Shown: one piece after another, positions 3,807 to 54,756 of the stretch
How positions within the stretch are numbered: the stretch's first letter is position 1
Layout: each line of letters begins with the position of its first letter
DNA from: a virus
Length of the DNA stretch: 64,000 nt
Reading direction: 5' to 3' (one strand)
Virus record (IMG/VR): IMGVR_UViG_3300044658_000141
Location: 39,077 to 103,076 of that record
The notes under the pieces: model-generated
Told to the model about the DNA's origin: nothing
The model's database searches: none
Seen by the model: the letters and a program-made list of their open reading frames with translations, nothing else
Position numbers and translations under genes: made by a program

Positions 3807-4982
3807 CTAGTAATGTGCAGACAAGGGACTTCCTTGCAACAAATCCAGTAGCCGTTGAACTGCACTGCTATCTTCCGACAACAACAACGAGTGATACGGT
3901 TCCTCGTTTGCATTGACCAGTCGTACACCTGCTGACTCTGCCCACTCTCGCTCCTCTGGACTAAAACCATCCTGCAACCACACTGCCGATTGTACATCGT
4001 TCATATGCATACAATATTGTATAGCTAGTGGCTTCTTGTCCAAATTAGGATAGAGCCGTTCCGCTTCAATCTCATCCTCCTCTAGCGTGAGAGGGTACCA
4101 GACAGCCCAAGCGTGTAATCCGGCACGTACACACCAACCATTGGCTAACTGTCCCCAGTGCGTCATCCAGATAGGTCTAATATTCTTGTCTTGATCAATC
4201 GTTTGCAAGATTGCGTTTGCCTGCGGGATCGGCCACCCTTCTTTGCCATAAATTGTTTCTTGTGGCAGACCAGCACTGGCAACCGAAAACACACCATCTA
4301 CATCGAGGAAGAGATAAGTAATGTCCTGATTTGCTCGCACGCTACGTCTAATAGGTTGATCGTTCACGACGATGGTTTTGTAATGGATGCAGTTTATGTG
4401 CATTGGAAAATTTGGTACATCATCAGACAAATTATAAGTATTTCCGGCATAAGCGGCGCACGTGTCAGAACTGCTATGCCCAGGCTCAATCAATATCTGC
4501 AATCTGAGTAACCCATCATCTTCTAACTCTTCGGCATTGTCCTCGTCCTGCACGTCATCCACAAACTGATCAGTGCCAGCATTCTCACCAGTGCTCCACG
4601 TATTATCAGCAATCTGCTGCGTTTTCCACGGCAAGAAACCGCTAATCCAGTCACCAACAGCAGAGACAACATTCTTGATACCGCTAATAATATCGCCAAG
4701 GGCTCGCTCTTGTGGCATCTCTTCAAGAGCATGACGGAGCAAGGTCTCATACGTCTCTGCGATACTCTCAACCTGCTGAGAGGCCCATTGTTGCGATTTC
4801 TCAACCTCGGACTCGGTGACTTGCCAGGGCTTACGCATGCGAACCACGTGAGCGGTCTTTGATCGGGCACGTTGATAAGCTTGAGCTTTTGCGAGGAGAT
4901 AGCCTTTGGCAAGTATATTGATAAGTTGCTGTCTGTCTTCGTCAGTAAATCTATAAGCAGCAATAATGGAGTCCTTGTTCAA
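3807..4982 (-). CDS. MuF/SPP1 gp7-like head morphogenesis protein fused to C-terminal HAD (Swiss-Army-Knife type) phosphatase domain
   Basis: Directly after portal; Cys/His motif C...FPMHINCIH. C-terminal LFLDVDGV...W.THW...VWLQDG HAD signature. Confidence 0.65.
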   Translation of the reverse strand: MNKDSIIAAYRFTDEDRQQLINILAKGYLLAKAQAYQRARSKTAHVVRMRKPWQVTESEVEKSQQWASQQVESIAETYETLLRHALEEMPQERALGDIISGIKNVVSAVGDWISGFLPWKTQQIADNTWSTGENAGTDQFVDDVQDEDNAEELEDDGLLRLQILIEPGHSSSDTCAAYAGNTYNLSDDVPNFPMHINCIHYKTIVVNDQPIRRSVRANQDITYLFLDVDGVFSVASAGLPQETIYGKEGWPIPQANAILQTIDQDKNIRPIWMTHWGQLANGWCVRAGLHAWAVWYPLTLEEDEIEAERLYPNLDKKPLAIQYCMHMNDVQSAVWLQDGFSPEEREWAESAGVRLVNANEEPYHSLLLSEDSSAVQRLLDLLQGSPLSAHY

Positions 4983-4985
4983 CTT

Positions 4986-7900
4986 TTAATCCTCCATCGT
5001 TGCTGCCTGCCTATGTCCGCGTTGTGCTACACGCTCAAAGACAGCATTAACACTCTTCGCCAAATCATCCTTGTTGGCAATGGCTGGCTCTGCCTCTTTG
5101 CCACGTGCGCGATTGAACACATTACGGACCTGATCAGGCGTTGTACACTCCACAAGTTCGTCACTTATCCATTTATGAATATCTGGAGATATGAGTGTGG
5201 TGGTAAAGCCTCTCTGTGTACGCCCAGCCTTCACATCATCTATTGCCCTGGTCCGCCAGCGTTTGTACTCCTGTGAGATCGCCCGTTCATCATTGCCACC
5301 ACTTTGGGATGAGGCATCGGGCGTAGGATCGATTTGATGTGTTGCTCCCTCTGTTCTTGCAACCATTGTATTTTGCGTGGATCGCTCAAAATGCGCTCCA
5401 TCTTCCTGGCTTGCCTTTTCCTCTTGCATCTGTTGCGTGAGTAATTGAAGGAGTTCGCTAATCGTGTAGCGCTTCTCTTCAAGTCCCTTTTGCTCGTTGG
5501 TAGCATCTTCTTCTTCCTCCTCATCTTCGTAATAGTCATACTCACTCTCATCTGCCAACATGGCACGAAGCATCTCTGACTGTGCTTTCTGTACAAGCTT
5601 TTCCAGTACGCTCGCCCTGGCTTGTGTCATGCCACGCTGGCCTTGCAACTTACCAATTGCCGATGTCAGATTCTCCACGAGGCTAGCGGCATCTTCTTCA
5701 TTCTGATGAGAGTTGATAGCCTGCATTAAATCATGGAGATCTTGCGCGATATTCGCCGCTTCTTGCGACTCCTGAGTCGTCCACGTCTTTGATGGTTTGC
5801 GTCCTGACAGTGCATTGTAGAGTTGCGCTTTAGAACCGATCGTGTTCACCAGCGATTGCAATTGTTTGGCCGCAGCCTGTTGTGCTTTTGCCGATTTCAT
5901 AGCAACGTGGGACTGGGTATTAGCTGATTTTGCAGCAGTCTTAGCAGCCTTAACCGCAGCGGTCTGCGCCTTCTGTTGTGCCTTCGCTGCCATCCTCTCA
6001 GCTTTTGCCTTGGCTGCTGCTGCTTGTTTCTGCAATCGTGCTTTCTGAGCCTGGGCCCTGGCTTTTGCCTCCGCTGCTCTCTTCTTCGCTGCCGCTTTTG
6101 CTTTCTCAGCCTTCAATTTAGCGGCTTGCTCTCGTCTTGCCGCTGCTTCCTTTTGCTTCTGCTCGCGTTCCGCCGCTTTCTCAGCGCGAATCTTTGCCAT
6201 CTCCTGTTGCCGTTGTTCGCGTTCCTGTTGGCGCAATGCACGCATCTGTTGTACGGCCTGATGCAAGTTTGCCTGAGCTTGATGGAGCGCTGCTCTTGCC
6301 GCCGCCTTCTCCCCCGGCGCAGCATTGTGCAGGTTCTGCTGTGCCTGGTGAAGTGCGTCACGGGCTGATTGCAATTTGGTTTCAGCGGCTTGTAACTTTG
6401 GTTGAAGTTGTGCCGTTGCCTGCGAGGCTTGTTTGGCTGCTGGTGACGTATCGTGTTTAGCTCCATAGGCCGGGTGTGCAAAATCGCCATGTGTTTTCTG
6501 ATCATGGTCATGACCACCGGGTTCATGGCGCGCAAAAAGAATGAGATCAGCAAAAGGATTGTAGCCATACTCATCAATACCATACACACGCTCTAGTTCA
6601 CTAAATGGCTCATCCTGGTCCGATTTGAGGAGTTGTAAGATCTCATCCTCGTATGCCAGATCTTCTGGCGTTGGAAGTTCACTCTCTTCTTCGTCTAGCT
6701 CGTCGGCTTCATCACCACTATCTGCATCAGCATCTGCTGAAGTATCCATCTGACCAGCAGTAGCGCGGCTCAACTCTTCCTCGTCGCTCTGATCAGATTT
6801 GCTCTGGCTACTCTTCTTCTGTGGTGGTATCTCTTCTTCTTCGCTATCATCCTGTTGTGGCTTCTGTTGCTGCGTAGATTGTTGCGGTTGCTGTAAGCCT
6901 TGCAATTTCGCTTGCAGGGCAGCATTGCGCATTTTATCGGAGGCCATGTCATCAAGAAAGATGGGACCATCTTTTGTTACCAGGATACGACCAATGTACG
7001 GAGCATTAGGATCGTCTGGAAGTTTCAACAATTTGCCAGCGTTAGTCACGCCTAAAATGCCTGATGTTACTAGTTCACTGTATGCACCTGCTAACTCTGA
7101 TACATCCTCCTCCTCTTCATATCCTCCAAAACTCGCCTCAAACATTTCACCATGTAAATCAGGGTCAAAGTCATTGTTCATACATTGCGTGAGGAAGCCC
7201 GCATACACCACTGCAAGCGGGTCAATAGTACGCCTGTATGTCACATTCTGCTGAGAGTCACCGCTACTCTTGTGGATATCCTCAGTAAATGCAACATCCT
7301 GCATACTTAGCCCATATGCCGCTACGCAGATGTTGATGAGGAACTTATCAAAGGTAGGATCAAGTTGGTACTGCTCAAATGCCTGATATTCCATGCCGGG
7401 TTGTGTAAAACGCATACGGACCTGCTGACTTTGATTGCCTGCAAGTAAAGCGTTCCACGCCTGTTCAAATGCATCGATCTGGTCAGGAGTCCACGTAGCA
7501 TCGGCTGGCACCTTCATCATGCCTTGTGGAATATTGCCCTCTGTGAAATGGCTCAAGTCTTTCTTCTGCTTGCGCAATGCTTGATTAACAAGCATGATGA
7601 TACGCTCGACTCTGGATTGTCCATAAGGATTGTCGGCGGCTGGTGACTCTTGGTAGTGGATCATCTCATCAGATCTGAACCACGCACCTGGCAGACCCCA
7701 TGGGTACTGCTGATAGGCATAGGATGGTGGCTGTGGTATCTTTCCCCAATCGTCCAATAGTGGTTTCATCTGATCGCCCGAAATTATCTCTAATGCATAT
7801 AGCCCACCACCACGCTTTTTACGCTTGTAAACATATAACTCATCAATTTGGGTTTGTTCCCGGAGGGCAATGCGTATCCAACTATGCAGGTCATGCATTT

Positions 7901-17975: not shown

Positions 17976-19025
17976 CTATGCAATGCGCAGACGCTGTAAT
18001 TGCTGCTCTGCAAACACAGCATACCCATAAGCATTGGCTTCTTCAGGATGTGCAATAAATTGCAGGTTGGGAATCCGACTATGAAGTTGATCATAAAAGT
18101 AGTAGGCCCCGCCGCCGATGCACAAGACCGAGGAGAAACTACTGGCAACTTCACTACCCGTCTCAGACTCGCTCCAGGTCGAAGAGACAAATGAGGCAAT
18201 CTCATTGCCGATTTGACGCAGTGCGTCTTTTGTCAAACTCTCTAAATCAGTAACTTCTTCACCACGTGCTTTGATGACAGGGTACTCTGTTTGATGAGCA
18301 TACGCCCGCAAGATTCTGCGTATCTCCTGACCTTTCAGAGGACGATTGTATTTCTTCTGAAAATTAGAACTGAGCAAATCACCGGCAATTTCAACACCCA
18401 AAGGCCTGCCTGCGCACATATGCCGCTGAGGGGTCTGGCCTTCAGCAACAAACAGATCTGTCGTGCGCCCTCCAATATCAATAACCCCTTGCACCGTTTT
18501 ATCACGAGAGCCAAAAGCAATAGCGGCCCCGGCCCCTTCCATGATGACACGCTCCACTTTCACATGGATCGTACGAATCGTTCCATTGACGGCAAACACA
18601 TGAACGCCTTCAAGAGCGTTCTTAATTTTCTTGCGGCTGTCAGGGTCACCCAGGTAGGTTTGCACCGGTAATCCGGTGACGACATTCAGACCAAACTCAG
18701 CGTCAGGGACCAGAGAAGAAGCCACAGTGAGAAGCAAAATCAAAGATTTCTCACTCCAGTACCGGCTAATATCTCCTCGCCCACTAAATGACATGTTCGA
18801 TTGAGTCAGCGCCAAGTTCCCAACGTACAGCTCAGTATCGCTATGCCTACTCTTGAAGACATAATCATTCGGCTTGAGAACGATCCCCAGCTTGGCTAAG
18901 TCCTCAAGGCTTCCTCCCTGTGCGGTGACGCTGGGAACGGTTTTAGAAATCTTTTGATTGCGAACAATCATCGTTCCACAGGTCTCCGCGTTGCCAAAGT
19001 CGTGTCCGTACGCATACGTTTGCAT
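17976..19025 (-). CDS. parM: ParM/StbA actin-like partition ATPase
   Basis: GHDFGN phosphate-1, VVTGLP, IMEGAGA, IDIGGRTTD phosphate-2, IGGGA and ANAYGY motifs. Confidence 0.9.
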   Translation of the reverse strand: MQTYAYGHDFGNAETCGTMIVRNQKISKTVPSVTAQGGSLEDLAKLGIVLKPNDYVFKSRHSDTELYVGNLALTQSNMSFSGRGDISRYWSEKSLILLLTVASSLVPDAEFGLNVVTGLPVQTYLGDPDSRKKIKNALEGVHVFAVNGTIRTIHVKVERVIMEGAGAAIAFGSRDKTVQGVIDIGGRTTDLFVAEGQTPQRHMCAGRPLGVEIAGDLLSSNFQKKYNRPLKGQEIRRILRAYAHQTEYPVIKARGEEVTDLESLTKDALRQIGNEIASFVSSTWSESETGSEVASSFSSVLCIGGGAYYFYDQLHSRIPNLQFIAHPEEANAYGYAVFAEQQLQRLRIA

Positions 19026-25899: not shown

Positions 25900-26036
25900 T
25901 ACACAAATACATATCCTGAAATCTAGCTAGAGAACCACCAATGTGGTAAAATCAGCCTACCAATCTAATTAGAGATTGACAAAACGCGCCATCGTGCCAC
26001 AAGCCGATGGCGCGTTTTGTCGTTTTGGGGATATAC

Positions 26037-27350
26037 ATGATAGGGACAACAAAAACTACTCAACTACCTCTCGATAGTATCCGCATTGATGGTGGCACGC
26101 AGCCACGCGCAGCCCTGGACCAGAATGTTATCCACGAGTACGCACAAGATATACTGCTCGGTGCAACCTTCCCACCAGTCACAGTCTTTTATGATGGCTC
26201 TGACTATTGGCTAGCAGACGGATTTCATCGCTATCATGGCGCGAAACAGATCTGCAGAGAAACTATTGATGCTGAGATAAGACAGGGCACTCGCCGGGAT
26301 GCCGTATTATACTCGGTAGGAACAAATGCTACACATGGACTGCGGCGCACAAATGCGGATAAGCGCAGAGCGGTGGAGACATTGCTAAGGGATGAGGAAT
26401 GGAGCAAGTGGAGTAACAGGGAGATTGCCCGTCAAAGTGGTGTTGACGAAGGAACTGTTAGAAACATCAGAAGTACCTTCACTGCGGAAATTCCGCAGTT
26501 AGAACGCCATTACATCACCAAGCATGGCACGGAAGCAACCATGAACACTGCCAACATTGGACAGCAACAGCAAAATCTTACCCCACAAAAGTTCGTTGAT
26601 GAAGTCATTCCCGGCTTTACCCAGTGGCAGAAAGACAACACAAAAATAGGGCTGGATGAATGGGCAGATCCGCTCTCTTCCGACAACCAGGGACCAGAAG
26701 AACCACCCACACAACCGCTTACAAGCAATACAGAACTTGACAAAGTATTTCCTGGTTGGCACAGAGAACCAGTTCCATTCCAGCCTATAACCGTTGCTCC
26801 TGTTGTAGAGGATACACCAGATAGCCCACAGTTAGACGCCAAAGAGCGACGTGATGAACACGTAATGCGAGTGATGGGCAGCAGTGACAGCCCAGAATGG
26901 TACACACCACAGGAAATCATTGATTTAGCCTGCCAGATGTTCGGCACCATCGACACCGACCCCTGTTCCAACAGCCACGAAACACCAGCGGTCCCGGCTC
27001 GCACACTCTACACCAAAGAAGATGATGGACTTGCCCAAACCTGGATAGGCAAAACGTACTTGAACCCTCCATATGGAGCGGAAATCAGCAAATGGACAGA
27101 CAAACTTGTAGCTGAGTATAAATCTGGCAACGTGACCGAGGCCCTGGCACTCCTGCCAGCTCGCATTGATACCGTATGGTTCAGCCCACTCTATGAGTAC
27201 CTCATGTGCAATGTACGCGGCAGAATCCAGTTTGCTAACTCTCCCTATCATGCACCATTCCCCTGTGTCATTGTCTATCTTGGCGAACACACAACCAATT
27301 TCATCAATCACTTCAAATCACTCGGCCCCATCATGAGGAGAATTGCATGA
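26037..27350 (+). CDS. ParB-like domain fused to phage DNA N6-adenine methyltransferase (Dam-type)
   Basis: N-terminal GGTQPR...LADGFHR...NATHGL; C-terminal EWYTP, DPC, catalytic NPPY, LLPARIDT.WF. Confidence 0.85.
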   Translation: MIGTTKTTQLPLDSIRIDGGTQPRAALDQNVIHEYAQDILLGATFPPVTVFYDGSDYWLADGFHRYHGAKQICRETIDAEIRQGTRRDAVLYSVGTNATHGLRRTNADKRRAVETLLRDEEWSKWSNREIARQSGVDEGTVRNIRSTFTAEIPQLERHYITKHGTEATMNTANIGQQQQNLTPQKFVDEVIPGFTQWQKDNTKIGLDEWADPLSSDNQGPEEPPTQPLTSNTELDKVFPGWHREPVPFQPITVAPVVEDTPDSPQLDAKERRDEHVMRVMGSSDSPEWYTPQEIIDLACQMFGTIDTDPCSNSHETPAVPARTLYTKEDDGLAQTWIGKTYLNPPYGAEISKWTDKLVAEYKSGNVTEALALLPARIDTVWFSPLYEYLMCNVRGRIQFANSPYHAPFPCVIVYLGEHTTNFINHFKSLGPIMRRIA

Positions 27351-38605: not shown

Positions 38606-39250
38606 ATGAGTATCACTGAAAAGACAAATGAACGTCTCGCCCGTATCCACTCAGCATTACAGGCTCAGGACTGGATACCTGAAGCCATGTATGATGAGGC
38701 TCAACACATCACTATGAATGCGTGGGCATTGATGGTAGCGAATGAGATTAAACGAAGAAGTCTTGAGAGGAGAGTAGCGTAATGCAAGGATACATCTACG
38801 AGCATGGGCAATGGTGGAAAATTGAGGTGACAGGACCGTTTAAGACCGATGGGCAGTCCTGTTTTGAGTGGGCAGAGTCCTACTATCCTCCTGAACAGCG
38901 TGTCGTATGGGAGAAGTTGACCAAGCAAGAACAGGCTGAATGGGAACAAATAGCGAGAGAAGTGGAGGAAATTGTCAATGGCTAATTCCTGTCCATTTTG
39001 CCCGATCATGGGCATTGATGAGAGTGAGTACCGGAATATCGAACAGACATTTTATGGTGAACAAGCAAATGTTGAAGGTATTCTCTGCTGTGATCCATGT
39101 ATGCAAGTGATATATATGTGTGGCGTTGCTGAACATATTCTCTGCCTGGCAAAGCATCTAGGCATCGTTATCACTCAGGATATGGACATCTCACAGGTAA
39201 CAGATGCCGTACAGAAACACCGGCAGGAGCTAGTGCGAAGGCAGGGTTAA
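38606..39250 (+). CDS. Three small coupled genes (38606-38782, 38782-38985, 38978-39250); last one truncated by the tnpB remnant
   Basis: TAATG-type coupling behind the promoter at 38494. Confidence 0.5.
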
Positions 39251-44944: not shown

Positions 44945-45286
44945 ATGACACCCGCAACCCTATCACAACTCTGGACACTTTTGCTGCCCCTGCTCGTCCT
45001 GATCATCTCGTACATCATCCAGCAGGAGCGCTGGTCAGCCACTATTAACGGCCTTATAGCACTCATCATGGTCATCATCGCCACCATCGCATCACTCATC
45101 CTGCAAGGTGGCAATCTCACCGACGCCAGTGTCGTGGCGGCATTCTCAGCTGCGCTCCAATCTGAAGCACTTGCGCCATTGATGCCATACCTGCGATCAT
45201 TCCCGGCATTGCCAGGCTCTACATCGCCATCAGCCACATCGCAGGCTACATTGCCTGCTACCGACTCGCAGAAGCCGAGCGCGTGA
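44945..45286 (+). CDS. Holin-like membrane protein
   Basis: Two TM segments; directly after the endolysin. Confidence 0.6.
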   Translation: MTPATLSQLWTLLLPLLVLIISYIIQQERWSATINGLIALIMVIIATIASLILQGGNLTDASVVAAFSAALQSEALAPLMPYLRSFPALPGSTSPSATSQATLPATDSQKPSA

Positions 45287-45364
45287 TGGAGTGTAGTAGC
45301 ACCTAGCGAGTTTTCATCGGACAGGGTCTTGCAAGGGGCTCCCCTGTTTGTTACCATGGCTGTC

Positions 45365-45892
45365 ATGCAACAGACATCCCTTTTTGAATCTGAAGAGCAG
45401 CAGGGGCCAACCTGCCCGCTCTGTCATTCCCCTGTCCGGCAACTCCCGGACAGCCAATTCGCCGATGTGGTGGCGATCGGCCAACAGCTCATGTGGCTGC
45501 ACCTGCATTATGAGCAAGCCTTGCCATTTCCCCTGCGCAAAATCACAAAGTCAGGCGTGCCTGTTTCGTATCGCGTGGAAAAGATGCGCATGTCGGACGA
45601 TAAAACATCTCTGTTTGTCAATGAGACGCTCACCCTGGCCGGTATCCCGCCAGAGGTGTACGAGTATCGCCTGGGTGACAAATCGGCGCTAGAGTGGGTC
45701 GTAGACCAGTACCAGGTCACAACTGATAAACGCAGCGGCCTGGTCAGCGATCCGAATAACCAGGATGATGAAGAGTACATTGTCCGGTTAGTCTGCCAGG
45801 TCGTGGCTGTTTCGCTGGAGACGGTGCGACTGACGAAGTTGCTGGACGAGCTGGTGGCACCGGAGGACTGGCTAGGAGTGGAAGCTATATAG
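45365..45892 (+). CDS. Stand-alone C-terminal specificity-domain fragment of a type ISP restriction-modification enzyme
   Basis: VEKMR...TLAGIPPEVYEYRLGDKSALEWVVDQYQV.TDKRSG...DPN...YIVRL...V.VSLETV; N-terminal QTSLF and CPLC. Likely leaderless (TTGCAA-18-TACCAT, ATG 7 nt downstream). Confidence 0.75.
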   Translation: MQQTSLFESEEQQGPTCPLCHSPVRQLPDSQFADVVAIGQQLMWLHLHYEQALPFPLRKITKSGVPVSYRVEKMRMSDDKTSLFVNETLTLAGIPPEVYEYRLGDKSALEWVVDQYQVTTDKRSGLVSDPNNQDDEEYIVRLVCQVVAVSLETVRLTKLLDELVAPEDWLGVEAI

Positions 45893-45901
45893 AGGGAGCT
45901 G

Positions 45902-46687
45902 TCAACTGTAGCTTGCGATTACGGAAAAAGTAGCAGCCAACTTGTGATAGAGCGCAGGCCAGCCACTTCTGAGCCACACATGAGATCCGTACTGCATGAC
46001 ACGATAGCAGGTAAGTGGGGCCACGCGTCGATGATCCAACGGTATGCCTAGTTCTGCAAGCTTGTCATAGACTGGATTGTATGGTAATTCCCTACTCACA
46101 ATATACCCCCAGACGTCCCGCTTCGACCAATGAGCTAGCGGCGAGCAGTGCCACCTATCGCCTTCGCTTTTTACCTGGTAAAGCGGTTTTGTACCGCCTT
46201 TGAGTGCATAGGTACGGCTTCTGCTCTCAGATGCCAGCAGTCCCAGGAACGTACCATCGTAGCCGCCTGAGAGATCCTTGAGAGAGTCCTGTGTCTCATC
46301 CCAAACAGGAGGATTGCCCCATATTGCCAACGCTTCAGGATCTTCGCACAGATCAGGACGCATCATTTCCTTACACCAATCGCGCCACGGTTGCATACAG
46401 CGTACACGATGGAGATGGAAGTTGTAGCGCTCTTCAGTGTCGGAGAGGAACTGAAGACTTTCTGGATAATCGTAGCCATCGTCACCAAAGACGACAAACA
46501 CACGATTACCGGCAGAATAAAGCAAATCAAGAAGAACGTATGAATCAATGCCACCTGAAAAAGCAAGATATGGATGGTCAATTTTGCTTATTGCCTCGTC
46601 AATGATCGCTCTAGACTTCTCGACCTTTCGTTGAAAATGTTGCAGTTTGGCATGGTAGATATGTTGCAGCTTTTCTATTTCAAGCAT
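45902..46687 (-). CDS. cysH: CysH-like (PAPS reductase family) accessory protein of type IV-B CRISPR-Cas
   Basis: PP-loop AFSGGIDS, LGL.ASES..R, PLAHWS..DVW.YI...LPYNPVYD; last gene of the csf operon. Confidence 0.88.
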   Translation of the reverse strand: MLEIEKLQHIYHAKLQHFQRKVEKSRAIIDEAISKIDHPYLAFSGGIDSYVLLDLLYSAGNRVFVVFGDDGYDYPESLQFLSDTEERYNFHLHRVRCMQPWRDWCKEMMRPDLCEDPEALAIWGNPPVWDETQDSLKDLSGGYDGTFLGLLASESRSRTYALKGGTKPLYQVKSEGDRWHCSPLAHWSKRDVWGYIVSRELPYNPVYDKLAELGIPLDHRRVAPLTCYRVMQYGSHVWLRSGWPALYHKLAATFSVIASYS

Positions 46688-47441
46688 CTTTTTTTCTTGC
46701 CTTTGTTACACACCATGATTGATTGATCGAATGCCACTGCGGAGCACGATAGGCAATGTGTTGGATATCAAGCGGCATAGCGATAGATTGATCAAACAAA
46801 GGACCTGGTACTGGTCGCATTAAATTTGCATCAAGCCATTCTGATTGATCTTGTTCAATTGGCTCTACATGCCACGCGAGCACATGCCCGTTTCCCTGGC
46901 TTCTCTTTTTGGCCAGTCCAACAATAGGCTGGATAAGCTCTGTTATCTGCTCTCTATCGCCATAGGCGTACCAGACAACCTTATCTGTTACGAGAGTAGG
47001 CAGTGGCATATGATAGGCTTTATAGCGGCCTTGCTCAATGATGATTTTCTCAACTCGACCGCCAAAGTCGATGTGATCAGAAAGAGATGGTTGTGTGTCA
47101 AAACGCTTATTCCAGTACTGCGTGTCTCTCGCCTGGATTTTGATTTGGGCTGAGGAACATGACCAGTACCAGAGGCTCTTATCCTGTATCTGTTCTTTGA
47201 AATCAAACCAGACATCGCCGGTTCGCATCTGCTGAACTTCAGGCGATGGCTTGCCTCTCATCTCAAGAGGCAAGCGAGCAAACATCACACATTCTTTTGG
47301 ATCTGGCAGATAGTAGAACTCATCTCCATAATGACGCCGGAGGACCTGAGCGGCTAAAATGCCATCCAGTGAGAGATCTTCTGGGCGTGCCAGGGCAATA
47401 GAGCCAGCAAGATGGGCAGTGATTTGGAGCGCTTCAAACAT
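46680..47441 (-). CDS. csf3: Type IV Cas5 (Csf3)
   Basis: LQITAHL...LSLDGILA, LPL, WSCS, GRYKAY.MP, WYAYGD, GLAKKRSQGNGHV..W, RPVP, YRAPQW. Confidence 0.85.
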   Translation of the reverse strand: MFEALQITAHLAGSIALARPEDLSLDGILAAQVLRRHYGDEFYYLPDPKECVMFARLPLEMRGKPSPEVQQMRTGDVWFDFKEQIQDKSLWYWSCSSAQIKIQARDTQYWNKRFDTQPSLSDHIDFGGRVEKIIIEQGRYKAYHMPLPTLVTDKVVWYAYGDREQITELIQPIVGLAKKRSQGNGHVLAWHVEPIEQDQSEWLDANLMRPVPGPLFDQSIAMPLDIQHIAYRAPQWHSINQSWCVTKARKKDA

Positions 47442-48394
47442 CAGCCTATCTCACCCAACACTTTTAGGATGTCCTCTTTATTCGTTTGTAAATGCTCAGA
47501 ATATGCCTGTCCGAGAGGCAGACCAACCTCTTGATTACCAGCCCTGGCAAGAGGCGATACAGACATCCAATTGTCAAATTTTAGCTCAACTTCGCCGCAA
47601 CCATGCCGGGATTGACCACCAATAAACGGGGCCTTACTCCACTCGATCAACGCGCTAGCAAAGGCTTCATACTCCAGATCGGTCACATCCTCTAGCTGAA
47701 GCCAGCAGTAGAAGCGTGTACCAGCAATCAGCACCTCTTGTGAATAGCGCATCTGCTGCGCTGTACCCGGCTTCTCTGCAATCTCTGTTCCGTCTTTTGC
47801 TAGTTTCGTCTTTGGCGCTTCTAACAGTGTTCGCTCTGGGGCTGGAAGATATTGCTGCCATTTCTCAGATTTAGCGTCATCTGTACGCGTGAAACTGTGT
47901 ACGTCCGTCATGTCGTAGATGCTCAGATACGACTCTGGGAGATGCTGATAGTGTGCAGGGAGGAGATGCATCATCTCTTTGCAGACGGGATACCACTTGC
48001 CTACTTTTAACTTGCCTTCGAGGATTTGACGACCACATGCTCCCCCAAAGACGCCCACAAGCGGGATGAGTTCGCGCAATTTACGCGCCTGCCCCATATC
48101 CAGACCACGACCGGCTTCTTTTGTGAGAGCACCACCGGATGTCAAAAAGTGAAATGCCGCCGGGGAAAGCGTCGGGTCCCCTAGCTCACGAAGCATATAG
48201 CGCATACCGGTATCGCGTAATTGACCACGAAACGAGTTACCTGAGATCATCGCTACATCAATGATTTTGCCATGAGAGATAACTTTCTCGCGACGTAGAA
48301 TTGACGTTGTACCGCCAGTGCTATCACCCAGATGAGACACCGCACTTAAGGCTGTAGCAATGCCCTCAAACCTGTAACTATTTACCTGCTGCAT
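47441..48394 (-). CDS. csf2: Type IV Cas7 (Csf2)
   Basis: ALSAVSH, ISGNSFRGQLRD, FL.SGG, IPLVGVFGG, TRTDD, QMRY..E.L..GT, IGGQSRHGCG. Confidence 0.9.
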   Translation of the reverse strand: MQQVNSYRFEGIATALSAVSHLGDSTGGTTSILRREKVISHGKIIDVAMISGNSFRGQLRDTGMRYMLRELGDPTLSPAAFHFLTSGGALTKEAGRGLDMGQARKLRELIPLVGVFGGACGRQILEGKLKVGKWYPVCKEMMHLLPAHYQHLPESYLSIYDMTDVHSFTRTDDAKSEKWQQYLPAPERTLLEAPKTKLAKDGTEIAEKPGTAQQMRYSQEVLIAGTRFYCWLQLEDVTDLEYEAFASALIEWSKAPFIGGQSRHGCGEVELKFDNWMSVSPLARAGNQEVGLPLGQAYSEHLQTNKEDILKVLGEIG

Positions 48395-48806
48395 TGGCAA
48401 TCCATCCTTTCTCTTGCTTTTCTTCGTCTTTAGCTATTCTCATGAGCATCACACAGACCTGTGGATCACGCCGTAGTGCCTCTAGGATGAGCATAGGGTC
48501 ACCGTGTTTTCCTGCAAGGCAATCGGCCACGAATCGGCGTTCATCATCATCCTTGCCAATCTCAGCCACTTGGAACATCTGTGAGAGCCTAGAGAGAAAA
48601 AAGGTCAAGCTGTTCGTAATTCGTGCCGCCGTCGCTACTCTCTCTTCGTACATTCTCCAGATCTCCATGCGATACTTGCTCAGATATTCTTTGTCGATGC
48701 CGTTCCACACGGCTCTCAGCAGGCTTGCTGCTACTTTTCGTATCTCTAGTTCCTGCTGAAATGGCTCCAGGTCCATCTCCTGCGCTAGGCCGTTCTCCTG
48801 TTGCAT
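48378..48806 (-). CDS. cas11: Type IV-B small subunit (Cas11-like)
   Basis: Helical ~142-aa protein between csf1 and csf2 (LLRAVW..ID..Y...IW..YEERV..AA...L..F...L). Confidence 0.7.
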   Translation of the reverse strand: MQQENGLAQEMDLEPFQQELEIRKVAASLLRAVWNGIDKEYLSKYRMEIWRMYEERVATAARITNSLTFFLSRLSQMFQVAEIGKDDDERRFVADCLAGKHGDPMLILEALRRDPQVCVMLMRIAKDEEKQEKGWIANAAGK

Positions 48807-49473
48807 CTTTTTCTTCCTTTTCAACTATCGTGATATAGCTGTACAATTCGATTTGCGGCGAGTTGCGCCATTGCTCCAATTGGCGACTGAGCAAAAGCGC
48901 CCAATCCCATTGGCCATGTTTTTTAAGCGTCTGGCCATAGAGATTACCGCTCAGGATCTCTCCTTTTCCATGTCCGAGTTGAAGCAGCCCCATAAACGGC
49001 ATCTCAATTGCTTCCCAGATTGACAGATTGAGATGTGCAACCTGCTCCTCAACCTGTATGGACAATTGATGGCTTCTAGTGGCATTCAATGGAGCTTGTA
49101 GCAGCACATGCTTCTTTTTGCTCAGAGATATCACGAGATAGCAATCTTCTTCCAGACCATGCCGCAATGCATGCAAGATATCGTCCTTCATCTGTTCGCG
49201 CTGCCAATTCTGCCAGGAATGAGGCTGGACAATAAGCGACATCTTGCGAAATTCTGGATGGCCTGCTTTATTGTCAAAGTACCACTGGCAGGCATCACAG
49301 AGATAGGCTGATGTTGGACATGCTGCAAGATAGTGGCTGTTGAATGTATCAGCTAGTCCACGAGCAACAGTATGCTGTTCAGTACATCTCGTTGCACAGA
49401 GATAGCATTGTGCTGTCCCTATGCTGTTATCGTTCTGGAACTGGCTGTAGAGCCAACCGATAGATTTATTCAT
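48589..49473 (-). CDS. csf1: Type IV large subunit Cas8 (Csf1)
   Basis: CYLC...TFN......CP.S..LCDAC zinc motif; S.KKHVL..AP.N; C-terminal ~72 codons overlap cas11 in another frame. ATG 49473 has a GAGG RBS. Confidence 0.8.
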   Translation of the reverse strand: MNKSIGWLYSQFQNDNSIGTAQCYLCATRCTEQHTVARGLADTFNSHYLAACPTSAYLCDACQWYFDNKAGHPEFRKMSLIVQPHSWQNWQREQMKDDILHALRHGLEEDCYLVISLSKKKHVLLQAPLNATRSHQLSIQVEEQVAHLNLSIWEAIEMPFMGLLQLGHGKGEILSGNLYGQTLKKHGQWDWALLLSRQLEQWRNSPQIELYSYITIVEKEEKDATGERPSAGDGPGAISAGTRDTKSSSKPAESRVERHRQRISEQVSHGDLENVRRESSDGGTNYEQLDLFSL

Positions 49474-49497
49474 CTCAATCGCCTCTGGAGACCTGCA

Positions 49498-49752
49498 TGC
49501 TGATCTGATTGGCGCTCGCAATGTCACCATGAGAACGCTCCTGGTCCGGCAGGACTGGATCAGGACGGGGTTTGTGTCAATGGCCCCTGATGCCTCGGAC
49601 CGTGAAGCCAAAGCGGCACGTCTACGAAGATCTGCCGAGTTGCGGTGGAGTCCAGGGGCGACGACACAAGCCTCCGCGATCTTCGCGGGGGTCGTTGACT
49701 CTTCTATCGCTTTCCTGATTATTGGCTCTAGCTCTGGCCTGTCAGCAATCAG
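49498..49752. ncRNA. Highly structured region upstream of csf1 (candidate ncRNA)
   Basis: Nested stems 49572-78/49663-69 and 49583-89/49653-59; hairpins 49539-65 and 49671-91. Minus-strand extended -10 TGATAAAAT at 49795-49803. Confidence 0.5.
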
Positions 49753-49891
49753 CGTATCGAAGAGAGAATAGCACAAACGTCCGTGAATGCCAACATTTTA
49801 TCACGATTGACACGTTGTGCTATACTTTCTCTTGTTTCTATGTATTTCTCGATTAACACTATTTGCACAATTGTTCAAGAAAGGATTTGTT

Positions 49892-50386
49892 ATGCAACCA
49901 GGCCCGCCATGGCCTCCATACTCACAGCCACCGGCGCGTCCACAGCTTGCGCATGAAAAGCTCTGGGCATGGTTCCAACAACGTGGCAAAGCAGGCAAAA
50001 TTGCAGTGTGTAGCATCGCGCTGTTTCTCTGTTTCTCCTGCTGTATTTGTTCCGCTGCTGCCAACTCTGGAAGCCAAACTGCAGTAGCACAACCAACCGC
50101 TATTGTGACCCAACCGCCCGTACGGCAGATCGCACCAACTCAAAGCCCGATAGCAACGCCACGACCTACACCTGTACCCACGCCAACGCAGCCGCCCATA
50201 CAACAATCTGCACCGGCAGAACAAGCGCCTGCACAAGTGCCAACGTCGCCATCGGTGCAATCGCCTCCTCCAGAAGAGACAGGCCAGCGAACCGGTGCCG
50301 AGTGTAATGATGGCACGACATCGATGGCGACAGGAAGCGGCGCTTGTTCTCATCATCATGGAGTTAATCACTGGCTGCATAATTGA
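49892..50386 (+). CDS. DUF3761-like membrane-anchored protein (paralog of 25417-25899)
   Basis: LAHEKLW.WFQ.R, TM helix, Pro/Thr linker, CNDGTTSMATGSGACSHHHGVNHWL. Confidence 0.7.
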   Translation: MQPGPPWPPYSQPPARPQLAHEKLWAWFQQRGKAGKIAVCSIALFLCFSCCICSAAANSGSQTAVAQPTAIVTQPPVRQIAPTQSPIATPRPTPVPTPTQPPIQQSAPAEQAPAQVPTSPSVQSPPPEETGQRTGAECNDGTTSMATGSGACSHHHGVNHWLHN

Positions 50387-50408
50387 CAGAAGTCACACGC
50401 TATGGACC

Positions 50409-50522
50409 TGGACAAAGGCCAGTCTGTAGCATAAAATTAAGCTCACAAAGATGCTGAACTAGAGGGCTGCGGCCAATCATCGGGCATCGAAGCGTTTTTT
50501 TATGCGCTTCGATGCCCTTTTT
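50409..50522 (+). ncRNA. Copy 2 of 42-nt leader/sRNA with promoter and terminator
   Basis: TGGACA-17-TAAAAT (50409-50437); core 50449-50490; 13-bp stem GGGCATCGAAGCG/CGCTTCGATGCCC plus U-tract. Confidence 0.7.
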
Positions 50523-50679
50523 GTTTGTTTGAGGCATTCGTACCGGCTTTGGCACGCTACAAAAGCGAGTGCTGAAGTACCTGCTCGCGAACGAAGGCTG
50601 GACGCAGGACGACATCAACCTGGAGTACTACTACGAGCCTGAAGATGGCCCAGAACTGATAGCCCCGTGGAGATACCTC

Positions 50680-50988
50680 ATGACTAACGAACGCGCTTCT
50701 AGACACCGCCGCAGGCGCGCTCCAGCACCGCAGCGCCTGAGCGAGCAGGGGTTGACCGCACTCGACCAAATTTTTCCAGGCTTTGCCGAATGGTACCGTG
50801 CCAATTACGACGAGCAGGGCCGGTTGAAACTAGAGTGGTCTTGTAATCCTTCTCACCTCATAGACGACGCGCCGGAGGACCTGAGCCACAACCGGTTGAA
50901 ACTAGAGTGGTTTTGTAATCCTTCTCACCTGCCGGAAGCACAGCCACCACCCACAAATACCGAGGAGGGAAAAGAAGAAAATGCATGA
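50680..50988 (+). CDS. Small hypothetical protein carrying an in-frame 72-bp insertion/duplication
   Basis: Paralog of 28418-28627; RLKLEW(S/F)CNPSHL occurs twice. Confidence 0.55.
   Translation: MTNERASRHRRRRAPAPQRLSEQGLTALDQIFPGFAEWYRANYDEQGRLKLEWSCNPSHLIDDAPEDLSHNRLKLEWFCNPSHLPEAQPPPTNTEEGKEENA
50820..50930. CRISPR. Candidate mini-array: 39-bp repeat / 33-bp spacer / 39-bp repeat
   Basis: CCGGTTGAAACTAGAGTGGT(C/T)TTGTAATCCTTCTCACCT at 50820-50858 and 50892-50930; spacer has a 17-nt match to csf3. Could also be an intragenic duplication. Confidence 0.35.
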
Positions 50989-51227
50989 AAAATTTGTGAG
51001 ATTTAGTGATGCGGAATATAGCATCATCGTGCTGCAAGGTTTAAAGCGTATGGTACGCAGGTCTGACTATTTCACTGGATATGTAGTACCACGCGATGTA
51101 ATGCGTGACAGCGCCACTGCCAGCGAAGTAACCGATGCATTGCAATATGCGATAGAGAAGATACGTGTGCAATTGCACATGAGCAGCGAAGAATTGGCAA
51201 AGAAACTAAAATACGAGGATATCACAT

Positions 51228-52016
51228 ATGACAAGTACTAATAATTACCGCTTTGGCTGGCGACGAGATACCCCAGATGGCCGCGATCTGCTCTTTACAA
51301 TCCCTGAGGACGTGGCACAATCCTTGCCCGCACAGGTCGATTTGACAGCGCAATGTCCGCCGGTGTACGACCAGGGAGACCTTGGTAGCTGCACAGCGAA
51401 CGCTATTGCAGGAGCATTTGAATTCGATGTATTACGTCAAAAGCTTCCTGATTTTACGCCATCGCGGCTTTTCATTTACTACTTCGAGCGTGCACTGGAA
51501 GGCGATGTGAGCCAGGACAGCGGTGCGACATTGCGAGACGGCATGAAGGTGATGAACAAGCGCGGTGTCTGTCCTGAGTCGCTCTGGCCGTACGACACCA
51601 GCAAATTCGCTGTGGAACCGCCAGTACAGTGTCGTGTTGATGCGCTCGATCATCGTGTGGTGAGCTATCGACGCATTACCAAAAATCTCACGATGATGAA
51701 AGCGTGCTTAGCATCTGGGCTGCCGTTTGTTTTTGGCATTAACGTATTCCAATCATTCATGGATGCCAATGATGGAGTCGTTCCAATGCCGGGACCGGAT
51801 GAGCCTCTGCTGGGAGGGCATGCCATTGTAGCAGTGGGATTTGATGATGCGACACAGCGTTTCAAATTCCGTAATTCGTGGGGAGAAAGCTATGGTCAGA
51901 ACGGATATGGCACAATACCATATGCATATCTGACATCATCACAAGCTTCAGACTTTTGGCAAATATCAGTCGTGGGCAATGTTTTAACACAAATTGTGGA
52001 GCGCCTCCACATCTAA
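51228..52016 (+). CDS. Papain-like (C1A, xylellain-like) cysteine protease
   Basis: DQGDLGSCTANA (Cys), SRLFIYY, GGHAIV (His), FRNSWG (Asn). Confidence 0.93.
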   Translation: MTSTNNYRFGWRRDTPDGRDLLFTIPEDVAQSLPAQVDLTAQCPPVYDQGDLGSCTANAIAGAFEFDVLRQKLPDFTPSRLFIYYFERALEGDVSQDSGATLRDGMKVMNKRGVCPESLWPYDTSKFAVEPPVQCRVDALDHRVVSYRRITKNLTMMKACLASGLPFVFGINVFQSFMDANDGVVPMPGPDEPLLGGHAIVAVGFDDATQRFKFRNSWGESYGQNGYGTIPYAYLTSSQASDFWQISVVGNVLTQIVERLHI

Positions 52017-54420: not shown

Positions 54421-54756
54421 ATGGCAACAATTCTTTGCAATACAATAGCGATGGCAATGTTTGATGCATCTCATCCTCATTCAGTACAGATGCATCCAAT
54501 TCAAGAGCATGAGGCAATATCGCTCTTGTCCAATGGCTTTGTACAGGCTGTAGGACATCCTGCTACAGCCGAGGTCCTGGCTCTGCGCACGGGATTGGAC
54601 ATAAAATTCAACCGAATGAATGTTTGTCTATCAAATGATGATATCCTCATCATTGCTCAGGTGGTCGTCCCTCGCCTGGCTGAAGGTCAAGTTCTCAGCA
54701 AGTCCTAAGTTGAGGCACTGCCTATACAGTGGTGGAAAGTTTGCGAAGTAAAGTAA
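54421..54756 (+). pseudogene. DUF1874 / STIV B116 / AcrIII-1-like viral ring nuclease, interrupted by TAA at 54706-54708
   Basis: FVQAVGHPATAEVL, FNR.NV.L...D..IIAQ...PRLAEGQVLS; the frame resumes VEALPIQWWKVCEVK* after the stop. Confidence 0.75.

Follow-up and report, generated by a model that had tools for sequence, protein, structure and literature searches.

Type IV-B is the least understood subtype of the CRISPR-Cas systems, and the RNA cargo of its complex is an open question. These systems are established as array-less loci accompanied by cysH, which reside on plasmids and sometimes on prophages (PMC7038947), and the purified complex binds heterogeneous RNA (PMC7937560, PMC8175902). 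A cassette of this kind, csf1-cas11-csf2-csf3-cysH, is present in the DNA studied here, a window of 64,000 nucleotides (nt; positions 39,077 to 103,076) of the IMG/VR phage record IMGVR_UViG_3300044658_000141, which comprises 103 kb and is estimated to be about 80% complete. The question raised by this locus is whether the RNA of a IV-B complex is encoded beside the complex itself. A first-pass annotation of the sequence had proposed three elements upstream of csf1 as candidate cargo, namely a structured region of ~250 nt, a small RNA (sRNA) between a promoter and a terminator, and a repeat-spacer-repeat unit, and a cis-encoded partner RNA would have been valuable. The analysis points elsewhere: this is very probably an ordinary and complete IV-B cassette, on a phage that probably infects soil Ktedonobacteria, and the three upstream features are unrelated to it, these being best explained as a remnant of an IS605/TnpB element, the terminator of a gene and an in-frame insertion.

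The type IV-B operon

Five tightly packed open reading frames (ORFs) were found on the minus strand at 45902-49776 (coordinates refer to the window unless a locus is named), the operon spanning 45902-49473:

45902..46687, minus strand, cysH-like gene (CasCysH), 261 amino acids (aa); Pfam PAPS_reduct, 9.5e-20
46680..47441, minus strand, csf3 (Cas5 of type IV); PADLOC Csf3_0_IV, 1.5e-39; TIGR03116, 6.7e-10, under the curated cut-off
47441..48400, minus strand, csf2 (Cas7 of type IV); PADLOC Csf2_0_IV, 1.7e-73
48378..48824, minus strand, cas11 (small subunit); PADLOC Cas11_1_IV, 4.5e-18, match from residue 27
48589..49473, minus strand, csf1 (Cas8-like large subunit), 294 aa; PADLOC Csf1_0_IV, 6.3e-17

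The first-pass annotation had recognised a phage-borne type IV-B module in these genes and had suggested checking it with profile hidden Markov models. Its recognition was right, as the type IV profiles of PADLOC match the products of csf1, cas11, csf2 and csf3 and PAPS_reduct matches that of the fifth gene. The NCBIfam equivalogs of Csf2 and Csf3 were matched below their curated cut-offs and, therefore, the cassette belongs to a divergent IV-B clade. In the CysH-like protein the PP-loop motif SGGIDS is present and the reductase motif ECG[LI]H is absent; a PP-loop that is kept and a catalytic cysteine motif that is lost are traits of the IV-B CasCysH proteins (PMC8175902). The cysH-like gene is also the last one of the cassette in all related loci. 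The start of csf1 (ATG 49473) was set by alignment with its relatives. An N-terminal extension of Csf1 from TTG 49776 was considered and rejected, because in the relatives the protein begins where ATG 49473 lies, and because the frame upstream of it is the antisense of the insertion sequence (IS) remnant described below. The start of cas11 is uncertain, the candidates being TTG 48824, ATG 48806 and ATG 48776.

Pfam searches of the 103-kb record detected neither Cas1, Cas2 and Cas6 nor a DEAD_2 (DinG-type) helicase, and the array search found no CRISPR array in it, so that the absence of these elements, previously noted for the window, extends to the whole record. Judging by the profile matches, csf1-cas11-csf2-csf3-cysH is a genuine, complete and array-less type IV-B cassette carried as an accessory module of the phage.

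Related type IV-B loci

The searches with Csf2 yielded two loci from viruses along with ten records of metagenome loci. Once duplicates were merged (L099 equals L003, L100 equals L002, L096 lies within L097 and L104 within L103), nine distinct loci besides the window were left, with Csf2 identities of 73-81%. The five genes csf1-cas11-csf2-csf3-cysH are present in all nine as far as the contigs reach, and the clade is known so far only from viral or metagenomic contigs. None of the nine carries the flanking genes of the window on either side, its leader or its CRISPR-like repeat pair, and their own leaders are short and unrelated to that of the window. Since the same five genes occur in ever-different surroundings, the cassette appears to work without an adjacent RNA gene. 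The first-pass annotation had suggested a comparison of the upstream regions of homologous loci and had itself listed a lack of common elements as speaking against its proposal; this was the outcome, as the nine other loci share none of the three upstream elements as a part of the cassette. The locus supplies no cis partner RNA, and the comparison of the ten loci argues that the clade needs none. A further useful result is that ten IV-B cassettes carried by phages, probably those of Chloroflexota, now form one coherent set.

Within the available sequence, eight of the nine other loci are devoid of arrays. The ninth, L003, contains an array of eight repeats (L003:10197-10750; 37-nt repeats and 35-38-nt spacers, two of them identical) at 3 kb from its IV-B cassette. 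This array begins 22 nt past a gene encoding a Cas12f/TnpB-like protein of 491 aa (region L003:8700-10750) and more likely belongs to that gene. It was absent from the Ktedonobacteria host genomes searched, and its spacers had no target in the window or in L002. Together, the array and the Cas12f/TnpB-like gene form a possible phage-borne miniature type V system. Another of the loci, L103, contains 570 nt upstream of csf1 a copy of ~77 nt of the csf2 ribosome-binding site (RBS) and first codons (L103:4911-4987 / 6943-7020, the same in L104), which is a rearrangement scar, and a repeat region with a period of 18 nt at 4203-4845. Matches of 16-mers between cassette and flank in L002 and in Skermania phage SPI1 look like chance. 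Gaps of 265-970 nt are found among csf2, csf3 and cysH in L096/L097, L103 and L105; the window has no such gaps.

The structured region in the csf leader

49493..49699, plus strand, IS605-family TnpB element truncated to its right end (omega-RNA scaffold); copies in host genomes, common end, covariation

The fold of the structured region is real, as 49474-49770 folds better than its shuffles (z of -2.4 in sense and -3.0 in antisense), and its codon usage is not coding-like. When translated, the region matched four "proteins" which share only a segment of ~60 residues within otherwise unrelated sequence; such a pattern is typical of a conserved nucleotide element. This element is present in 73 of 169 Ktedonobacteria genomes in several copies each (a tally that takes in the unpublished genomes G078 and G116, the G078 locus being excluded from the alignment and no other claim depending on these two genomes), and the best copies are 82-91% identical (up to 88-91%). 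In the host genomes, a tnpB-like ORF of the same orientation runs with its 3' end into the element; for 13 or more of 16 host loci the tnpB-like match stops within it, and Pfam OrfB_IS605 matches the ORF of one host copy (L129:278-1516). All 17 aligned copies stop together at TTGAC, beyond which their flanks are unrelated, and of the 55 pairs in the consensus fold, 17 show double changes that compensate each other.

In the window, the remnant keeps only the last tnpB codons (...CMLI and the stop; 49493-49508) and ends at the conserved TTGAC, the rest of tnpB being gone. It lies antisense in the 5' leader of csf, 19 nt from the csf1 start codon. No Rfam family was matched in 45000-52000 at E <= 1. 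In L096/L097 a complete copy of the IS, with its tnpB, is located downstream of cysH, a finding that says no more than that this IS frequently inserts into these phages. As judged from its copies, the structured region is a decayed IS605-family element and not an IV-B-specific RNA, any RNA role being predicted from the fold; what had been proposed as a partner of the complex is thus a right end that is multi-copy in the hosts.

The predicted small RNA

49761..49830, strand not assigned, region with divergent promoter-like sites that separates csf1 from the plus-strand gene; consensus matches only
49892..50386, plus strand, P0001 gene; product membrane-anchored, rich in proline and DUF3761-like at its C-terminus; Pfam DUF3761, 1.1e-4, under the cut-off
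50482..50527, plus strand, strong intrinsic terminator of the P0001 gene with a 14-bp stem and a T-run; hairpin 50482-50517, 95 nt past the gene stop

The sRNA of the first-pass annotation dissolves into parts of a neighbouring gene. Its terminator lies on the same strand as the P0001 gene and the promoter hexamers are at chance level, with 13 sites in the 7-kb region against 7.6 +/- 2.5 expected. The ORF opposite the P0001 gene has a clearly non-coding codon usage. The terminator hairpin had no Rfam match and no copy in the 169 genomes of the host class. From this arrangement, the claimed sRNA is in all likelihood the ordinary terminator of a plus-strand membrane-protein gene. The promoter-like sites themselves are located at 49793-49765 (minus) and 49798-49826 (plus), and a 16-nt inverted repeat (49761-49776 / 49815-49830, 88% complementary) that spans both -10-like boxes may be a shared operator.

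The repeat-spacer-repeat unit

50569..50667, plus strand, remnant of a zinc-finger gene C-terminus (P0006-like); 33 aa that are 79% identical to the C-terminus of P0006
50680..50988, plus strand, P0005 gene for a small protein of 102 aa; good RBS, stop overlapping the start of the next gene (ATGCATGA overlap)

The repeats are real. Two direct repeats of 39 nt (50820-50858 and 50892-50930) with one mismatch in 39 surround a unique "spacer" of 33 nt (50859-50891), and these sizes are those expected of CRISPR. However, the whole unit is in frame in P0005. A word-index search with this protein returned only itself, and a full HMMER scan gave 20 relatives at E <= 1e-3, mostly of 62-83 aa, which do not have a segment of 24 codons (72 nt) present in P0005. 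The alignment of the family reads ...IFPGFA.WYRANYDE.G(K/R)x, a short loop, (I/L)PGL(R/K)P and an acidic tail, and P0005 matches it on both sides of the unit: repeat 1 starts inside the conserved G-R-L (...YDEQG(K/R)L) and LPEAQPP after repeat 2 aligns with (I/L)PGL(R/K)P. Because the family is matched on both sides and 24 codons are extra, the unit is best read as a coding insertion. Thus, on the family alignment, a real protein gene has gained 72 nt in frame, by insertion or duplication, and the unit lacks the non-coding character of a mini-array; its proposal as an RNA partner is not supported.

The repeat was absent from IMG/VR (exact match), from the rest of the genome, from 169 Ktedonobacteria and 401 Chloroflexota genomes and from the related loci. 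It is unrelated to the repeat of the L003 array and does not fold stably (z about +0.9 to +1.1). Weak matches of the "spacer" in two Chloroflexota genomes are inside ordinary coding genes with similar peptides, and the "spacer" had no match in L002 and L003. ESM Atlas gave no result for P0005, and the relatives of P0004 in IMG/VR were too distant to help. The zinc-finger remnant forms the first 33 codons of a longer GTG-ORF and has neither a start codon nor the N-terminal part; the area around P0005 has clearly been rearranged. An unrelated database protein of 96 aa, P0024, is made up of three 19-residue repeats and contains KTKLEWNCN, similar to the RLKLEWSCN of the window; this protein probably arises from the translation of a tandem repeat, and the resemblance is perhaps due to chance.

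The Csf1 tail overprinted on cas11

The last ~70 codons of csf1 (48589-48806) overlap cas11 in another frame, and the tail that they encode ends in QLDLFSL. In each of nine clade loci (the window, L002, L003, L097, L098, L101, L102, L103 and L105) the Csf1 frame stays open over the 5' half of cas11, for ~60-70 codons, while only 2.5% of comparable off-frame windows in the genes of this phage are free of stops. Four of these nine tails end in QLDLF, the others in QSALF, QPxLW or comparable residues. Csf1 of Skermania phage SPI1 has no long tail, the overlap with cas11 being of 14 nt. By its residues, the Qxx(L)(F/W) end of the tail resembles a sliding-clamp-binding motif. A complex predicted for DnaN of Ktedonobacter robiniae with the last 50 residues of Csf1, both supplied as alignments, scored 0.26 against a mark of 0.32, a result that counts neither way. 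This clade-specific tail is a testable handle on what the complex binds.

The carrier phage and its host

The 103-kb record encodes portal, head protease and large terminase. In addition, partition-type genes (ParM-like; a ParB-methyltransferase fusion) and a tyrosine integrase are present (window 17976-19025 and 26007-27350; G000:C1:11466-11972). With partition genes and integrase co-occurring in the phage, its lysogeny may be plasmid-like or integrated. A TnpB gene located in the window shares 79-82% identity with its counterparts in assemblies of Ktedonobacteraceae, Ktedonobacter robiniae among them. Because of this identity and of the copies of the IS remnant in 73 of the 169 Ktedonobacteria genomes, a Ktedonobacteria host is likely. 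The gene content thus suggests a temperate tailed phage as the carrier, with Ktedonobacteria (Chloroflexota) as its most likely, though not proven, host. This probable Chloroflexota host is a by-product of the analysis; the phyla listed for IV-B in PMC7038947 do not include Chloroflexota.

No relative of the cassette was found when the 169 Ktedonobacteria genome assemblies were searched with a Csf2 profile or when the genome contigs collection was searched with Csf2 peptide patterns, and megablast of the locus against the phage collection gave no match. The literature search found no report of IV-B in Ktedonobacteria phages.

Neighbouring genes

54421..54753, plus strand, putative AcrIII-1-like (DUF1874 / STIV B116-like) gene; PF08960, 2e-11, 44.4 bits, above the cut-off

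The AcrIII-1-like gene that the first-pass annotation had placed in the same genome was confirmed with PF08960, 5 kb from the cassette. It suggests that the phage invests in anti-CRISPR functions and shows no link to IV-B. An in-frame TAA at 54706 costs the gene the last ~8 profile positions, as read-through lengthens the PF08960 match from 3-91 to 3-99 of 101 (48.5 bits). A nonsense mutation of recent date, an error in the sequence or a truncation that is tolerated would account for it. On the other side, a stand-alone ORF at 45329-45892 converges on cysH; of the type ISP restriction enzymes it matches the specificity domain at the C-terminus and nothing else (PF18135, 9.9e-29).

Possible modes of action

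While the gene content, the motifs and the independence of the cassette from its flanks are shown, its action, presumably as an array-independent ribonucleoprotein, can be proposed only tentatively. By analogy with the solved Mycobacterium complex, taken as the model for filament assembly on RNA, filaments of Csf2 and Cas11 capped by Csf1 and Csf3 would assemble on RNAs that are not encoded in cis, and the complex would act together with the PP-loop CysH-like enzyme to the benefit of the phage when it contends with the defence of its host or with other mobile elements. A bolder combination, which we regard as unlikely, is that of a IV-B complex without cis guide which is tethered to the host replisome via the conserved disordered Csf1 tail, its CysH-like enzyme acting on nucleic acid at forks, the match to csf3 described in the next paragraph reflecting additionally an antisense cross-talk between the P0005 transcript and csf mRNA. 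The cassette could also scavenge CRISPR RNAs (crRNAs) from arrays located elsewhere, in the host or in the phage as in L003, for an RNA-guided interference with competitors. This hypothesis is present in the literature, and L003 has a real array of eight repeats near its cassette; however, that array is more likely the property of the Cas12f/TnpB-like gene, the other eight loci show none within the available sequence, and the solved IV-B complex did not load co-expressed crRNAs (PMC8175902), so that scavenging, too, is unlikely.

Several observations weigh against the independence of the cassette from its upstream features. Positions 50870-50886 of the "spacer" recur without a difference at 47335-47351 in csf3, on the same strand, an exact match over 17 of the 33 spacer nt whose chance is about 1e-3 or less genome-wide and smaller for the adjacent operon. 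In 300 shuffles of the spacer the longest genome match was 15 nt, an exact one of 17 nt being expected 0 times, and among the relatives no comparable self-match was found except the L103 duplicate. Moreover, the repeats differ in only 1 of 39 positions and the sequence between them is no copy of what follows repeat 2; they are therefore no simple recent tandem duplication. The codon usage of the unit is not coding-like, but with only 14 codons it is too noisy to decide. A two-repeat mini-array beside a virus-borne IV-B locus has been published for Fuxivirus, a Bathyarchaeia virus (PMC10848311), and the IS remnant or a separate sRNA may be transcribed. A rival reading is a working mini-CRISPR, as proposed for Fuxivirus, whose transcript would be loaded by the IV-B complex, pair with csf3 mRNA or DNA via the 17 nt and tune the operon like CreR-type RNAs. 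The 17-nt identity, the Fuxivirus precedent, its CRISPR-like sizes and GTTGAAAC motif, its distance of 1.05 kb from csf1 and repeats that are near-identical while the rest of the P0005 gene is an ORFan-like extension favour such a unit, which we nevertheless hold to be very improbable: the unit forms part of the reading frame of a conserved protein family, repeat 1 being partly made of conserved codons, no Cas6 or other processing enzyme accompanies it, its repeat fold is unstable, no promoter-like site lies ahead of it on either strand, and the repeat is missing from the nine related IV-B loci and from 570 genomes of the host phylum. In addition, the similarity to csf3, when gapped, crosses the repeat/spacer border and reaches the end of repeat 1, which may fit a template-switch patchwork insertion better than spacer acquisition, or may be chance. 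Co-option of the IS605 remnant, as an antisense-structured leader regulating csf translation or as a plus-strand omega-like RNA for TnpB (of host or phage) or for the Csf complex, is quite unlikely as well. The remnant lies exactly between the csf promoter-like sites and the csf1 RBS, with its fold intact and its 82-91% identity to the best host copies, and the csf leader would be largely complementary to host omega-RNAs; against this, the element is scattered in host genomes without any link to IV-B, no other IV-B leader has the remnant (the whole IS of L096/L097 is downstream of cysH), and the leaders of the relatives are short and unrelated. An ordinary cassette with unrelated upstream features remains the reading that we prefer.

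Comparison with known systems

Type IV-B loci on viruses, in one case with a mini-array of two repeats, have been published before; the first identification of the cassette is right, and the claim of novel RNAs is unsupported. The IV-B system on a plasmid of Mycobacterium sp. JS623 (PMC7937560, PMC7038947, PMC8175902) has the same genes in the same order, with cas11 and a PP-loop cysH-like gene, and both systems are array-less, have no Cas6, helicase or adaptation genes and are located on a mobile element. However, the carrier here is a tailed temperate phage, probably of Ktedonobacteria, and not an actinobacterial plasmid, and Csf1 bears here an extension of ~70 residues overprinted on cas11; the NCBIfam cut-offs are not reached either.

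As regards the structured region, it agrees with the right end of IS200/IS605 TnpB elements and its omega (re)RNA in the overlap with the 3' end of tnpB in full copies, the multiple copies, the sharp right boundary and the covarying multi-stem fold. It differs from a complete IS200/IS605 element in that the window copy has no tnpB beyond the last codons and no Rfam match. The locus illustrates step by step how the right end of an IS605 element, or a duplication that keeps the reading frame, may pass for an "RNA partner". The CreR/CreA degenerate mini-CRISPRs are non-coding, match promoters and are conserved with the cas operons that they regulate. They are like the unit in P0005 in having two repeat-like units around a spacer that partly matches the cas locus, whereas the unit of the window is neither non-coding, nor promoter-matching, nor conserved with the cas operon.

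Fuxivirus and the phage studied here both carry a virus-borne IV-B locus with a repeat-spacer-repeat nearby for which no full protospacer was found, but the unit is here in frame in the gene of a conserved protein and best read as a coding insertion, and the host is bacterial. Finally, Skermania phage SPI1 (L004, KR011061.1), the Csf2 of which is only 35% identical to that of the window, carries in orf40-44, annotated only as hypothetical, a complete five-gene IV-B cassette in a cultured phage.

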